Positions 12,001 through 27,000 of a DNA stretch of 64,000 nucleotides are shown in pieces (position 1 is the first letter of the stretch; the number at the start of each line of letters is the position of its first letter). Position numbers: made by a program. Origin of the DNA: a bacterium (GTDB taxonomy: Bacteria; Krumholzibacteriota; Krumholzibacteriia; G020349025); assembly GCA_031362565.1 (NCBI GenBank), contig JANLSU010000039.1, positions 64,001-128,000 on the forward strand. Reading direction: 5' to 3'.

Positions 12001-15000
12001 TTGCCGCGACGCGCGGCGACGCACCCGCCTGGCCGGCGGCAACCGGCGACGCGATCCTCTATGTGCGTACCGCGCCACCCGGCGGACTGCGAGCCCTCGA
12101 TCCCGAGAGCGGCGAAATTCGCCCGGTGCGCTTCGCGGCCATCGAAGCCAGCGTCGCACGGCCGGTTTTCATCACGGCGCGCGGCCGCGACCTCAGTGTG
12201 ACGTTCGAGCGCGGCGGTAAGTCGAGCGTCGTCGCGACCGGCGAGTGGCCCGGTTGGACTGCGGGACACGACACGCTCGACGTGCCCGGTCGCTGGGCGA
12301 CGGCGTTGCAACTCCACGATCCACGCACCGCGTGGGTTCCCGACACCGACGCATTGTTTGCAAGTGTGACGCTCGCCGACTCGACTCCCGACGTCGCGGC
12401 GCTCTGCGTCGTGCAGGGCGCGACGCTCCGCCGGCTCACGTACGGCGTCGTCGAACCGCGTGCCGCCATCGCGCAGCGTCGAGCCGGTGGGCAACTGACG
12501 CTCGTCTTCGTGGCCGGGCGCAACGACTTGTGCCGCGCCCCCCTGCGCGTCGAGGACTTGCGCATTCCCACCGTGCGCGTCTTCCCAGCCCCCTCGGCCC
12601 GGCACGAATCCGGCTCTTTTCGCCCCTAAAGCCGTCCGGGCGCCTGGACGCGACTTGACTTCGACATTCACTTCTTGCGGCAGGGCATGACGTTTCCGAC
12701 CACCGAACGGCGTTTGCGCCGCGACCTCGCTGCCATTCGTGGCGATGGGGTCGCGTTCAGCCTCATGGTGGGGTTGGGCGAGACCTATATTCCCGCCTTC
12801 GCACTTGCCGCCGGACTCGGTTCGGTCACGGCTGGATTGGTGACGAGCGTGCCGCTGCTCGGCGGCGCCTTGTTGCAGCTCGTGTCGCCATTCGCAGTGC
12901 GGAAAATCGGCTCACGGCGCACTTGGGCGGTCGCTTGCGTGACCCTGCAGGCGGCGTGCTACGCACCGCTCGCGATCGCGGCGTGGTGCGGACGTGTTCC
13001 GGCCGTCGCCCTGTTCGCGATCACGTGTCTCTACTGGGGCGCGAGCATGGGCGCCGGGCCGGCGTGGAGCGGCTGGGTCGGAACGATCGTCCCGGCTCGA
13101 GTGCGCACGACGTACTGGGCGGAGCGCAGCCGTCTCGGCCACGTGGCGCTGCTCGCCGGCTTGCTGGTGGGCGGCGCGGTGCTGCACTTTTGCGCGCCGC
13201 CGCATCGCACGGATCTCCTGGCCTTCGCTGCACTGTTCGCCGCGGCCGGGCTCTGCCGCGCCGTTTCGGCGCGTTGCTTGGCAAGCATCCCGGGCGAAGT
13301 CGCCCCGCCACCGGCACGGGTCTTGGGAACGCGCGCGGTGATCGCGCGTCTCGGCAGCGGCGAAACCGGTCGCTTGTTGCGTTTCGCGCTGGCGCTGCAA
13401 GCCGCGGTGCAAGTCGCGGGGCCCTTCTTCACGCCCTACATGCTGCGGCAACTGCATCTGCCCTACACGGCGTATGTCATTCTGCTCGCCGCGTCCTACG
13501 GCGCCAAGATCATCAGCATGCCGCTCGTGGGCCGCGCCGCACGCCGTCACGGTGCGCTGCGTTTGCTGCGTCTCGGTGCTCTGGGCATCGCGCCCTTGCC
13601 GGCCCTTTGGCTCGTGTCGTCATCGCTGCCCTGGCTCATCGCGGTGAACGTGCTCTCGGGCGTCGTCTGGGCGACCTACGAACTGTCGCTCTTTTTGTTG
13701 GTGTTCGAGACCATCGAGGACACCGAGCGCACGAGTGTGCTCGCGGCCTACAACGTCGTGAATGCATTCGTGACCGTCGGCGGTGCGGCACTCGGTGGGA
13801 TTCTCTTGCAGCATGGCGGCATCTTCGCGCCGGTGTTCGCGCTGTCGTCGATCCTGCGCGTTCTGACCCTGCCACTCGCAGCGCGGCTCCGCGCGACAGG
13901 TTCCGGCCGCACGCTCCCGAGCTGGACGTACGGGGTCACCGGGCGCCAGGTTTTGGCGGCTTGTCGGGCACCGCGGGCACAACAGGCGCTACGGGCGCCG
14001 GGCGTACGCGCTTTGGGTTGCCCCGCACTTCCAGATTCGGGCCGAGATGGCACTGCACGCACAGAGCCCGTTTGGGTTCGCGGAGCAACAACCGTTCGTA
14101 GTCGCTGGAATGCGGCGAGTGACACGAGGTGCACTCCAAATCCATCCCCGTCCGTGGATCCTTCGCCGGGCCCTGATACGGATGCGGGTGCACCTTCGAC
14201 ACATCGTGGCATTGCATGCACAACACCGACTGCGGTGCCTTGAGAATCTTGCGCGTCGTACTGCCGTGTGGAGAGTGGCAATTCGTACAAGTCTCTACAT
14301 CCGGGTGTTTGTTCTTCTTGGCAAACAGCCCGCGGTCATGACACGCGACGCAGGTCGATTGCAGATCGGCCTTCCGCAACAATGCGTCCGTGGTTCCGCC
14401 ATGCGGGGAGTGACACTCGAGACAGCTCTTGCCACGCAGTAGCGCCACATGCGGCGCGGTCTTGGTCAGATCCGCCTTGTGGTCGTCGTGGCAGGTCAGA
14501 CACAACTCGGGTGCTGGCGCGACGAGTTGCTTCTGCGGCGTGTGGCATGCATCGCATTGGTTTTCGGCGAATGGCGCGTGCTGTTTGGGTGGCAAGAGTG
14601 CGCGCTGACCACTGCCGTGGGGATCGTGGCACTCGGTGCAGGCTTGAATGCCGTCCGCGAATCCTTTGTGTTTGGTGCGGAACACGGCGGCGTTCGCATC
14701 ATGACACTTCACGCACAGTTCGCGATCGGTCGCCGTCCGGCGCAGCCCGCGCGCCTTGCCCTCATGCGGGGCGTGACATTCCAGGCACTTGCCGCTACGC
14801 GCCGGCGAATGCCCATGCGCGCCCTGGGCACGTTTGACGATGTCGGCGTGACACGTGGCACACAGCTCCGCAACCGGGCGCACCAGCAACCCAGGCTCGA
14901 CGCCTTCGTGCGGCCGGTGGCACGTGATGCACTGGCCCTCGCGCACGGGGCGGTGCACGAGCGTGGTATCGCCGGCAGTCGTGACATCGGTGTGACATTC

Positions 15001-24000: not shown

Positions 24001-27000
24001 TCGAGCGGCGACGGGCCATACCAGATCCGCGGCACCGAAAGGATGACGGGCGCCTGCGCCGCGGCGGCCGCGGCGACGCCGGCGAGGATCGAGGCGTACA
24101 CGAGGGTCCGGCAGAGGCGGCGGGCGCGCATGGTTTTCCTCCGCAGAACAGGGCTGGGGTAACCCACTTCCTCCGGTTCTTCGGTGCGAGGATTCGGTGT
24201 ATTCAAACGACTCAACGCGCGGGTCGAGTGTGTCCTTTCGCTCGGGCAGGTCCTTTGGCAACGCTCGAACGGACGCACTGTGTCCTTTCGCATCAGGCTC
24301 GGGGCCCCCCCTCGGCGCCCCAACGGGGGGTCGGCCGTTGGGTGGAGAACGCAGCTTGCACGCCAACGCAACGCATGGGGATCGTGAAATCAACGCCGAT
24401 CGACAGGCAGTTGGACCTGCCGTACGTCGTGCATGCACGTGCGCCGCGAACTTGCGCTGCGGGGTGGAGTCCGCGGCATTGTGGGAACGACGCGCCGGCG
24501 CCGCGGCACGGCCGCCGGCGTTTCATCGCTCCCCAGGGTCACATGGGATGCGTCAGCTTGATCGCTGCGAGAACGGCGCCGGACGGATCCGCAAAAATGG
24601 TGAAGCGCCCAACGTTCTCGATCGTCATCGGCGGCATGTAGACCTGGCCGCCGAGTTCGCCGGCCTTCTTCGCGACGCTGTCGCAATCGTCCACCATCAC
24701 ATACGGCGTCCAGTTCGGCGGCATGTTGCCTTGCTGGGGCTTCATCGCCATCATGCCGGCCACCGAACGGCCGCCGACTTGAAACTCCGTGTACTCGTTC
24801 TTCGGATCCGGCTTTGCGGTCCAATTGAAGAGTTCGGTATAGAACGCCTTGGCGCGCGCCGTGTCACGGGTGGCGAGTTCGCTCCAACCGAAGGGGCCCT
24901 TGTCCGAAGTACCGGGATGCTGATCGAGCAGCGCGATGCCAATCGCCGCGCCGGTCGGATCTTGCAGGAACCCGATGCGGCCGACGCCCGGCACGTCCAT
25001 CGCCGGCATCATCGCCTGGCCGCCCAAGGTGGCGGCGCGCGTCAAGGTTTCGTCGACGTTTTCGACCGCGACGTAGGTCGCCCAATTGGACGGTACGCCT
25101 TCGAACTGCGGCCCTGCCATTTGGTACAAGCCGGCGATGTCCTCGCCGCCCGCCTTGAGAATCGTATACGCGCCGGCCCCACCCGGCATCGGCACTTCCA
25201 TCGCTTCCCAGCCGAAGAGGCGGGTATAAAAACTCTTCGCCTTCGCAGCGTCGCGCGTGGCGCATTCGAACCAGTTGAATGTCCCGGGCGCATGCTTGGA
25301 TGCGGACATGACCAGCCTCCGGTTGCGGTGGGCGGATTCTCGGCGTCGAGTCGAGCGAATCGTCATCGCACGCCTCGAAGCGACATCTTGATCACGGAGC
25401 CAGCGAGGAGCCTGAGTGTAGCCGATTCGCAGGCGGTGTGAAGGTCCGAGGTGAGGGCGCCCGGGAGGGCTGGCGGCGGCCCTCCGGCCATCGGCTATAC
25501 TGCCCCACTGACGAACCCGGATGACTTTTGGAGCGAACCGCATGCGCAAGAGCAAGGCGATGTCCGTGGCACTGGCCGTCTGGTCGCTGGCGGCGATTCT
25601 CTGGGTCGGCGCCTCGCACGGCCTGTCGATCCCGCCCGCCATGATCGCCATGGTGCGTTGGATCGGCATCGCCGCCCTCGTCATCCACGCGTACCGCCGT
25701 CGCTCGCTCACGACGTGGATCCTGGTCGCAATGGTCGCCGGCGCCGCGGTCGGCCATGACTGGCCCACGGCCGGCCAGAACTTGCGCATCCTCAGCCAAA
25801 TTTTTCTGCGCTTGATCAAGACCATTATCGCGCCGCTGATCTTCTCGACTCTAGTGGTCGGCATCGCCGGACACAGCGACATCAAGAAGGTCGGGCGGAT
25901 GGGCATCCGGGCGCTCATCTACTTCGAGGTCGTGACGACGATCGCACTGTTCATCGGGCTCGCCGCAATCAACCTGAGCAAAGCCGGAGTGGGTGTGCAA
26001 CCGCCGGCCGAGATGCACGCCGAGCTCCCGAAAACGGAGAAGCAGTCTGCCACCGACGTCATCCTGCACGCCTTTCCCGAAAACATCTGCAAGTCGATCG
26101 CCGAGGGCCAGGTTCTGCAGGTGGTCATTTTTTCGATCCTCTTCGCAATTGCACTGGCCTCGCTCCCCGAGGTACGCCGCGCGCCGATGATGCGTTTCTG
26201 CGAAAGCCTGTCGGAGACGATGTTCAAGTTCACCAACATCGTCATGCTCTTCGCCCCGATTGGGGTCGGGGCGGCGATTGCCAACACCGTCGGCCACATG
26301 GGACTCGGCGTCCTCGTAAACCTCTTCAAGCTCTTGGCAACGCTGTATGTGGCGCTCATCGTGTTCTTGTTGTTCGTACTGCTGCCGATCGCGCTCCTCA
26401 TGCGCGTGCCGATCCGGCGCTTCGTGCGCGCGATCGCCGAGCCGGTATCGATCGCGTTCGCGACGACGAGCAGCGAAGCCGCCCTGCCACGCGCCATGGA
26501 AGCCATGGTCGCGATCGGCGTGCCGCGCCAGATCGTCGCCTTCGTCATGCCGACCGGTTACAGCTTCAACCTGGACGGTTCGACGCTCTATCTGTCGCTG
26601 GCAGCGGTCTTCGTGGCGCAAGCCGCTGGAATCCATCTCGACTTCGGCCAACAGCTCGCCATCGTGTTCACGTTGATGCTGACGAGTAAAGGCGTCGCCG
26701 GAATTCCGCGCGCCAGTCTCGTCATCCTCCTCGGCACCGCGGCCTCGTTCAACCTCCCGGAATGGCCGATCTTCATCATTCTCGGCATCGACGAGCTGAT
26801 GGACATGGCGCGCACCTCCGTCAACGTCATCGGCAATTGCCTCGCCACCGTCGTCGTCGCGCGCTGGGAAGGCGACTTCGGCCGGGAGCGTCCCTCCGTC
26901 ACAGTTCTGGAAGCCGCCGAGTAACCCCCTGGAACGGACGCGGCGCGGATGGGATAGTCCAAAGCGCTGCGGCGGCGCTACAATTCGCCCGGCCGCGCTG

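Follow-up and report, generated by a model that had tools for sequence, protein, structure and literature searches.

A putative compact variant of the omcS-companion gene cluster, with a candidate nanowire subunit, in a Krumholzibacteriota genome

The window analysed here is a stretch of 64,000 nucleotides from a Krumholzibacteriota genome. At 13936..24131, where the preliminary description had placed an eight-gene cluster, lie eight co-directional open reading frames, all on the minus strand and most of them abutting or overlapping:

23127..24131, minus strand: g02592, 334 aa, NHL-repeat beta-propeller; signal peptide without a lipobox
22003..23112, minus strand: g02591, 369 aa, OmcS-family hexahaem cytochrome; candidate filament subunit
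20776..21867, minus strand: g02590, 363 aa, seven-haem cytochrome; candidate anchor/terminator or adaptor
19185..20762, minus strand: g02589, 525 aa, outer-membrane beta-barrel; 28 predicted strands, C-terminal Phe
18554..19147, minus strand: g02588, 197 aa, PelC/LpoB/CsgG-fold lipoprotein; OscF slot
17917..18573, minus strand: g02587, 218 aa, second PelC-like lipoprotein, single domain; OscG slot
17234..17911, minus strand: g02586, 225 aa, conserved exported protein of no recognised family; OscH slot
13936..17226, minus strand: g02585, 1096 aa, predicted 42-haem paired-CXXCH periplasmic cytochrome

The CxxCH motifs number 42 in g02585, seven in g02590 and six in g02591, as previously counted; among the 29,068 six-frame ORFs (100 aa or longer) of the whole genome, only 11 have six or more such motifs. 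The start of g02585 is the ATG at 17226, in an ORF that extends to 17304. ResB and cytochrome c assembly genes are present in the genome, g02591 is its single OmcS-family subunit gene, and a promoter and terminator scan of the cluster gave results at chance level. Composition gives no sign of a recent horizontal arrival (GC 0.657 in the cluster, 0.653 in the genome).

The motifs of g02591 begin at C36, C79, C143, C225, C318 and C356, and its description as a six-haem OmcS homologue holds up under several independent comparisons. A single-sequence search of the PDB misses OmcS, as it had before, but a 105-row profile again places OmcS (6ef8) first (E 3.6e-7, runner-up 0.085), and a more diverse 110-row profile reaches it at E 7.7e-23, covering chain residues 1-404. 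The search also works in reverse: a profile built from 25 canonical members of the OmcS family recovers g02591 (E 8e-17). OmcE chains are also matched by the diverse profile (7tfs, E 1.5e-6; 9yuq, E 3.4e-6), but OmcE has four haems against six here, and the E-value for OmcS is lower by 16 orders of magnitude. With the predicted model, Foldseek (E 7.9e-4, TM 0.35) and VIA (Z 11.4, rmsd 4.1, 233 residues aligned; next Z 4.5) both return OmcS first; the mean pLDDT of this model is 66.6, and residues 21-83, including H29 and H43, fall below 50.

The haem ligands point the same way. H29, H43, H122, H150, H261 and H325 are kept in 109-110 of 110 family rows (H43 in 109) and align, in the profile alignment, with non-motif histidines kept in canonical OmcS-family proteins; the five of these six distal slots that were checked are retained in 25/25 such proteins. 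A seventh conserved histidine, H233 (105/110 rows), could ligate haem 5 within the monomer. OmcS, a polymeriser, also has a histidine at this place. We take His16 of OmcS to be the ligand donated to the neighbour's fifth haem, and the histidine three residues after haem 1 to be the subunit-bridging one. As a marker of filament formers this +3 histidine does not discriminate, because OscC-like paralogues keep it too. According to passages of PMC6584659, each OmcS subunit supplies 11 of its 12 haem ligands itself, the remaining one, on the fifth haem, belonging to the neighbour, and the filament rises by 47.5 A per subunit.

Both OmcS (GSU2504; 6EF8/6NEF) and g02591 have six CxxCH motifs in three pairs and an N-terminal histidine near the mature start. 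They differ in identity (16-23% in structural alignments), in motif spacing (43/64/82/93/38 in g02591, roughly 39/94/101/93/73 in OmcS) and in the core, which is about 90 residues shorter in g02591. In an unrooted tree of 40 of 131 rows, eight canonical OmcS and three OscC-like rows lie on one side of a branch of length 1.81 (SH-aLRT 100) and g02591 lies on the other. The subunit is thus, as far as sequences and a predicted fold allow, a true but distant OmcS homologue that falls outside the OmcS+OscC clade rather than an orthologue of GSU2504. Homology alone does not show polymerisation, because of four G. sulfurreducens paralogues OmcS alone is known to make a wire, according to passages of PMC12977616 that also state that authentic OmcS outside the genus cannot be picked by HMMs; given this and the position of g02591 in the tree, we put filament formation at barely better than an even chance. 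A complex prediction with two copies and four haems gave a score of 0.24 (mark 0.42), with controls not folded, and counts neither for nor against.

The preliminary description had used OmcE clusters (PMC13712944) as its yardstick. These share with the present cluster a nanowire-type subunit accompanied by a large barrel, a propeller and multihaem partners, but its PelC-like lipoproteins and 42-haem chain set the present cluster apart from them and are features of the omcS-companion (osc) cluster of Geobacter sulfurreducens, which is the proper comparison. That cluster spans GSU2504-GSU2493 (Shen et al. 2025, Cell Chem Biol, as reported in passages of PMC13194489 and PMC12977616). In canonical omcS loci, one of whose subunits matches 6ef8 at E 8e-193, the order is propeller, omcS, propeller, barrel, two lipoproteins, chaperone and long cytochrome, and profiles from our cluster match the barrel, both lipoproteins and the long cytochrome. 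The cluster has, in the same order, an OmcS-family hexahaem cytochrome, a barrel and two PelC-like lipoproteins downstream of it (the OscE, OscF and OscG slots), and a paired-CXXCH chain, together with an NHL propeller; the Osc letters of the comparison loci were assigned by gene order. The two long periplasmic cytochromes of the OscI and OscJ slots are represented by one fused 42-haem protein. From gene order and profile matches, the cluster appears to be a compact variant of the published osc operon, with a single subunit gene and no orthologue in the OscB, OscC, OscD or OscH slot.

Two of these slots hold other proteins. The second propeller (OscD) and the SurA/PPIase chaperone (OscH) of canonical loci are replaced here by g02590 and g02586, and profiles of the two canonical slots found no orthologue among the eight genes, the best match being that of the OscD profile to g02592 (E 1e-3, 6.5 bits). 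OscD and OscH have been proposed to act in OmcS morphology and folding (passages of PMC13194489). Other SurA/PPIase and propeller genes lie elsewhere in the genome. The eighth gene, g02586, which the title of the preliminary description passed over, has a core conserved in 33 rows, with no PDB match and no Pfam family in more than one of them; an Atlas match to DUF2155 at 0.86-0.87 is a lead only. The upstream propeller was correctly recognised in g02592 (Pfam NHL, E 5e-12), but PMC13712944 requires a propeller lipoprotein and no lipobox is found in the N-terminal sequence of g02592. Such a propeller precedes the subunit gene in 16 of 18 strong relatives within the phylum, and the g02592 profile picks up the gene that lies upstream of omcS in canonical loci (E 1e-14 to 1e-35), the slot that g02592 itself occupies here, although NHL propellers are common.

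The product of g02589 is, as proposed, a large outer-membrane barrel, modelled by AlphaFold2 as all-beta with 28 strands (pLDDT 93.2) and matching outer-membrane barrels by fold. Its family profile matches the canonical osc barrel in 5/7 loci (E 2e-15 to 2e-5), and the canonical-barrel profile fails to reach g02589 itself (E 0.28); g02589 is probably a short counterpart, with weak homology, of barrels that have 727-757 aa against its 525, a difference of about 200 residues. The closest fold is that of MtrB (6r2q_B; Z 16.8, rmsd 7.7, 413 residues aligned), and this raises the alternative of a porin-cytochrome conduit of fixed stoichiometry in which g02585 would cross the periplasm and sit as a plug in the barrel, as MtrA does in MtrB, with g02590 and one or a few g02591 subunits as a short terminal module on the surface, similar to MtrC or to OscC/GSU2501, and no micrometre filament. 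MtrAB(C)/DmsEF systems (6R2Q) share a large plug-less barrel, of 26 strands, and a DmsE-family haem chain, but that chain has ten haems rather than 42, MtrC is absent here, and g02589 has no Pfam match at E<=0.01, MtrB_PioB included. The cluster lacks the pairing of an MtrB_PioB barrel with a decahaem MtrA (a separate MtrB/PioB barrel gene lies next to that of a decahaem cytochrome on contig C34 of the genome), and it has OmcS-family and PelC-like partners, the latter to our knowledge foreign to Mtr conduits.

Both proposed lipoproteins are borne out. In g02588 Cys19 is invariant, and its profile matches PelC structures (9h80_C, E 3.3e-8; 5t11, E 2.6e-10) as well as the lipoprotein of about 200 aa encoded after the canonical barrel (E 1e-35 to 1e-39). 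Its paralogue g02587 (E 2e-34), whose lipobox was read from the sequence only, has one domain where the 384-416-aa protein of the canonical OscG slot has two, both matching the g02587 profile. The PelC likeness of g02588 suggests another arrangement, in which the barrel and lipoproteins export, for example, polysaccharide, like PelBC, and the cytochromes stay in the periplasm, where they store electrons or form an internal redox chain. A table in PMC9248073 lists a wild-type phenotype for a deletion of GSU2494, by its place in the gene order the 16-haem counterpart, and the genome need not respire solids, because it encodes three genes of the haem-copper oxidase family. The cluster has no glycosyltransferase, however, g02589 greatly exceeds the PelB barrel in size (247 residues aligned), and barrel, lipoproteins and cytochromes are inherited together in one order in 15/15 complete loci of the phylum and under many phylum labels; we regard this arrangement as improbable.

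The long cytochrome g02585 carries one haem motif per about 25.5 aa and matches the DmsE family TIGR03508 at E 4.5e-124, above the DmsE/MtrA cut-off, which would suit a conduit as well. GSU2495 has 26 haems and GSU2494 presumably 16, and such separate pairs in related loci map onto g02585. Proteins with 25 or 26 haems align to residues ~6-681 in 11/12 cases. Of the 16/17-haem proteins, 10/16 align to the C-terminal part (~650-1064) and the others to internal repeats, one of the 16 being an L062 frame fragment. To judge from these alignments, g02585 is a fusion of the 26- and 16-haem cytochromes of canonical osc loci. The fusion is not diagnostic of the compact type, because 7/9 sampled canonical-type loci of the phylum share it.

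The seven-haem cytochrome g02590 has no solved relative that its profile could find in the PDB (nothing below E 0.029). Most relatives have a Cx5-8CH motif at haem 2 (45/57 rows, some being the same protein twice), so that seven canonical motifs are a peculiarity of this copy. Eight non-motif histidines are conserved (H29, H56, H144, H168, H232, H263, H332 and H357), the full set occurring in 51/57 rows. With seven haems and 15 conserved histidines, g02590 has the 2n+1 histidines proposed in PMC13712944 as a criterion for an anchor or terminator cytochrome, and by its sequence fits this published and unfilled prediction, making it a candidate for that role. Natural fusions (L070, L077, L098, L123 and P0260) place g02590 behind a g02591-like domain, 34 residues after its haem 6, in the order of a filament junction. 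These fusions build 12- and 24-haem chains, showing that finite concatemers exist, as a conduit would have it, but in several of the genomes the same locus also retains a free-standing subunit gene. Mutual exclusion of g02590 and OscD holds in 79 loci and fails in L196, which carries both.

Relatives of g02591 at E<=1e-5 are present in 20 of 208 genomes of the phylum (this one, 18 strong and one weak), in its own family and four others, in line with the earlier count. Synteny is stronger than had been claimed: all 18 strong relatives have g02590 and the barrel after the subunit gene, and all 15 whose contigs reach far enough (three end too soon) have the downstream block complete. In these 15 complete loci the long cytochrome shows 42 motifs 13 times, 41 once and 21 once. 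The single-protein search that served as a phylum survey missed 57 other genomes of the phylum whose subunits are nearer to Geobacter OmcS than g02591 is, which indicates that OmcS-family genes, in two cluster types, are present in at least 77 of the 208 (20 + 57). The g02591 family occurs under 13 phylum labels and is not specific to this phylum, and in records labelled Planctomycetota and Acidobacteriota its members adjoin complete canonical-type blocks. The subunit tree intermixes phylum labels, and this is no proof of transfer. A 301-genome sample of another phylum yielded divergent osc-like loci, with no Geobacter-type reference. The claim that OmcS-type systems were newly extended to this phylum was overstated, given the 13 labels, the 57 genomes with closer subunits and a 2021 report, in a passage of PMC7914226, of OmcS-encoding sequences in a Krumholzibacteria MAG, as a marker hit only. 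The term 'OmcS-like' occurs in PMC12545173. We found no description of the compact cluster or of g02590 in the literature searched, which left most subscription papers and supplements outside.

We slightly favour reading this as a compact osc operon whose products assemble a haem wire leading from the periplasm to the cell exterior. The g02591 subunits would be exported by Sec, receive their haems and stack head to tail like OmcS, H43 ligating the open haem 5 of the neighbour. An outer-membrane platform would be formed by the barrel and, at its periplasmic face, the two lipoproteins. Electrons would cross the periplasm along the 42-haem chain, which if straight would measure some 30 nm (scaled from 80 A for the ten haems of MtrA) and would have one end inside or next to the barrel, in the manner of MtrA in MtrB. 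More speculatively, g02590 may give H56 to the last subunit and, offering no open haem itself, end and anchor the filament. Such a self-terminating wire, of n g02591 subunits capped and anchored by g02590 and connected via the 28-strand barrel to one periplasm-spanning chain, is in this complete form an unlikely proposition.

Counting against any wire are the barrel, short by about 200 residues and nearest in fold to MtrB, whose pore traps its cytochrome (passages of PMC7198977), and the absence of OscD and OscH from the cluster. A conduit of fixed stoichiometry gains from both points, from the single subunit gene in the genome and from the suggestion in passages of PMC12977616 that the block, before there were OmcS wires, may have served in secretion. 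However, H43, kept in 109/110 rows, would lack a haem partner in a free subunit if no neighbour provided one, and together with the lipoproteins, the separate decahaem pair on C34 and the free subunit genes of fusion-bearing genomes this leaves a conduit a credible but rather doubtful alternative.

This kind of system has already been published, and the cluster is a slimmed-down form of known assembly machinery. What OmcS wires do in iron reduction is itself a matter of dispute (passages of PMC13194489), and the export, ending and periplasmic connection of cytochrome nanowires are named as open questions in the Discussion of PMC13712944. If the reading as a self-terminating wire is correct, g02590 would be the first nanowire anchor or terminator cytochrome encoded in its own operon, and many uncultured lineages of the FCB group would be nanowire producers. 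With its one subunit gene, candidate anchor and fused periplasmic chain, this set of eight genes offers a smaller system for tests than the Geobacter operon does, and the survey bears on which organisms in sediments and sludge could pass electrons to or from minerals or partner cells.

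Eight genes, abutting or overlapping for the most part, occupy minus-strand positions 24131-13936, and counts of CxxCH motifs bear out the haem numbers of 6, 7 and 42 given for three of them in the preliminary description:

22003-23112, minus strand, g02591, six CxxCH motifs
20776-21867, minus strand, g02590, seven CxxCH motifs
13936-17226, minus strand, g02585, 42 CxxCH motifs

At least six such motifs occur in only 11 of the 29,068 six-frame ORFs of the source genome. In Pfam and NCBIfam the cluster cytochromes have paired-CXXCH matches, g02592 has an NHL match, and g02586-g02589 have no family match. 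The genome also contains cytochrome c maturation genes and three haem-copper oxidase family genes. Elsewhere in it, an MtrB/PioB barrel adjoins a decahaem cytochrome, forming a separate MtrAB-type conduit (G000:C34:32329-35602), and 20-haem and 16-haem cytochromes lie side by side (G000:C105:42215-45758).

As a single-sequence query against the PDB, g02591 did not reach OmcS. A profile of 105 close homologues matched the OmcS structure 6ef8 at E 3.6e-7 (runner-up 0.085), and one of 110 diverse homologues aligned the whole 6ef8 chain at E 7.7e-23, followed by two OmcE chains (1.5e-6, 3.4e-6) and all other cytochromes at 0.003 or above. In the reverse direction, 25 canonical OmcS-family proteins as a profile matched g02591 at E 8e-17. 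The AlphaFold2 model of g02591 (pLDDT 66.6, and below 50 at residues 21-83) ranked OmcS first both in Foldseek (E 7.9e-4, TM 0.35) and in a wide VIA search (Z 11.4 against 4.5 for the runner-up, with 233 residues aligned at rmsd 4.1), so that the homology to OmcS proposed earlier is upheld by profiles in both directions and by both structure searches.

Six non-motif histidines of g02591 (H29, H43, H122, H150, H261 and H325) are present in 109-110 of the 110 family rows and line up with OmcS histidines in the profile alignment. A seventh, H233, is conserved in 105 rows and has a counterpart in 16 of the 25 canonical proteins and also in OmcS itself. The bridging ligand of OmcS is presumably His16, the counterpart of H43 at the +3 position. 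The fifth haem of OmcS is described as receiving one ligand from the neighbouring subunit (PMC6584659). All 25 canonical six-haem proteins have the +3 histidine, but because OscC-like paralogues are among them it is no marker of filament formers. In a quick, unrooted IQ-TREE analysis of 40 of 131 rows, a branch of length 1.81 (SH-aLRT 100) separates g02591 from a group of canonical OmcS (eight proteins) together with three OscC-like ones, a split that recurs in two further trees. According to PMC12977616, only OmcS is known as a wire former among four paralogues, and recognizing authentic OmcS in other genera is beyond HMM identification. The non-discriminating +3 histidine, the tree split and these statements together argue that g02591 is an OmcS-like protein and not an OmcS orthologue.

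Scanning metagenomes with a short OmcS motif yielded 34 canonical loci, and the subunit of one of them has a match to 6ef8 at E 8e-193. Gene order there starts with an NHL propeller and omcS, goes on through (spermidine-synthase-like gene, second hexahaem), a YNCE propeller, a 727-757-aa barrel, a ~200-aa lipoprotein and a two-domain lipoprotein, and ends with SurA/PPIase and the long cytochrome, with Osc letters given by gene order; this is the osc operon layout summarised in PMC13194489 and PMC12977616, the latter describing the G. sulfurreducens block as eight genes, GSU2500-2493, with 26 haems in GSU2495. The window barrel profile matches the canonical barrel in 5/7 loci (E 2e-15 to 2e-5), and the canonical barrel profile run in reverse did not reach g02589 (E 0.28). 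The canonical lipoproteins, where complete, are matched at E 1e-35 or better by window profiles previously broadened with matches that include canonical-type members, and the long cytochrome is matched in 3/3 at E 1e-75 or better. The g02588 family profile matches PelC (9h80_C, E 3.3e-8) and related lipoproteins, g02587 is a g02588 paralogue, and g02586 is conserved among relatives, no family assignment being found for it. Because 25/26-haem proteins of related loci align to g02585 residues ~6-681 (11/12) and 16/17-haem proteins mostly to its C-terminal part (10/16), g02585 is a 26- and 16-haem pair in fused form. The cluster differs from the osc operon in the OscD and OscH slots, which are occupied by g02590 and g02586, and it contains no orthologue of either canonical slot protein. 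A SurA/PpiD-type chaperone, probably an ordinary PpiD, lies 3.5 kb away on the opposite strand (8599-10392, plus strand) and matches the OscH-slot profile weakly (E 1.5e-4).

We favour, with slightly better than even confidence, a model in which g02591 subunits would stack, each head on its neighbour's tail, to form a filament of the OmcS type, with a platform of barrel and lipoproteins as its base and the 42-haem chain g02585 as its feed. The ten haems of MtrA extend over 80 A (PMC7198977), and by this scaling the 42-haem chain would be about 30 nm long when straight. The main rival, a porin-cytochrome conduit of finite size bearing a short module at the surface, is a distinctly less probable though serious reading; it is favoured by the chaperone missing from the cluster and by the g02589 barrel, which is shortened and MtrB-like. 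The predicted g02589 fold (pLDDT 93, 28 strands counted on the model) resembles outer-membrane barrels, with MtrB first (Z 16.8, rmsd 7.7, 413 aligned).

Both the spread and the conserved gene order claimed for the cluster hold: g02591 is matched in 20/208 phylum genomes (its own, 18 strong, 1 weak), g02590 and the barrel come next in 18/18 strong relatives, and the entire downstream block is present in each of the 15 whose DNA extends far enough, the long cytochrome having 42 motifs in 13 of them. Another genome of the phylum has a divergent cluster (L044, G020:C110:8000-27000), in which a 9-haem cytochrome accompanies two weak homologues of g02591 and the long cytochrome is split 25+17. A species-genome scan gave 279 relatives, from which 79 loci were retained, with 13 phylum labels in submitter titles, mainly Eisenbacteria (14), Planctomycetota (12), Zixibacteria (8), Gemmatimonadota (5), Acidobacteriota (5), Krumholzibacteriota (4) and Ignavibacteriota (4); 19 have no label. 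In these loci, cut at 10 kb, compact-type components are the short barrel (50), g02590 (40) and g02586 (36), and canonical ones the long barrel (11), OscD (12) and OscH (6). In none of the 79 does the long barrel occur together with either g02590 or g02586, nor the short barrel with OscD; L196, which carries both g02590 and OscD, is an exception to this division. In the phylum of G219, the neighbours of five-haem OmcS-like proteins are either complete blocks of the osc type or 12-haem cytochromes in pairs (L188-L202).

The g02588 alignment matches 70/208 phylum genomes, and a canonical-type cluster was present in 9/9 second-tier genomes sampled, with the long cytochrome fused in 7 and 26+16 in 2:

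Second-tier loci L203-L211, in genomes G081, G082, G087, G164, G124, G012, G017, G027 and G091

The subunits of these clusters, after which a 6- or 7-haem OmcS-like paralogue often comes, are much closer than g02591 to Geobacter OmcS, one matching 6ef8 as a single sequence at E 6.6e-51. The subunit alignment, to which eight of the matched genomes supplied rows, matches 57/208 genomes at E<=1e-40, none of them among the 20 that match g02591. With 57 genomes against 20, the preliminary description had therefore hit upon a minority type, and the window cluster is the more divergent one in the phylum.

The kind of system is already published, reportedly by Shen et al. 2025, whose title calls it 'widespread and ancient'. 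The cluster is conserved in Krumholzibacteriota as proposed, but its novelty there is reduced, as OmcS-encoding sequences had been reported by FeGenie in a Krumholzibacteria MAG, with no cluster analysis in the sections concerned (PMC7914226). The count of five phyla for OmcE agrees with PMC13712944. No description of the compact cluster was found in the literature searched.

An anchor cytochrome co-encoded with the filament has been predicted to have 2n+1 histidines for n haems, and OmcE operons were seen to contain none of this kind (PMC13712944). Besides its seven haems, g02590 shows eight conserved histidines outside the haem motifs; 51/57 rows have all eight and the other six lack H56, some proteins being entered twice. 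H56 occupies the +3 slot, as H43 does in g02591. A short barrel accompanies g02590 in 40/40 loci, and a g02591-like domain is fused ahead of g02590 in four loci and in P0260; in the two fusions measured, 34 residues separate the motif starts. Against this lead, the 2n+1 arithmetic also fits g02591 once H233 is counted, and in some compact loci the g02590 slot is taken by a 9-haem protein. The full anchored-wire model with g02590 as anchor is a tentative and rather unlikely one. P0260 (1879 aa, 24 haems) begins with a g02591-like domain, continues with one like g02590 and carries another eleven motifs after it; it could represent part of the proposed wire with its units joined covalently. Most g02590 orthologues have an atypical Cx7-8CH at haem 2, and in 8/57 rows the haem 7 motif reads CxxVH or CxxTH, so standard CxxCH counts undercount the family; at L073, L078, L092 and L104 the C terminus of g02590 is lengthened by a further six haems of another type.

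OmcS and OmcE are described as being without sequence similarity (PMC9473688, PMC12977616). Because the g02591-family profile reaches both, over residues ~30-160 of g02591, this family may, unless shared haem motifs drive the scores, provide a sequence bridge for a common origin of OmcS and OmcE.
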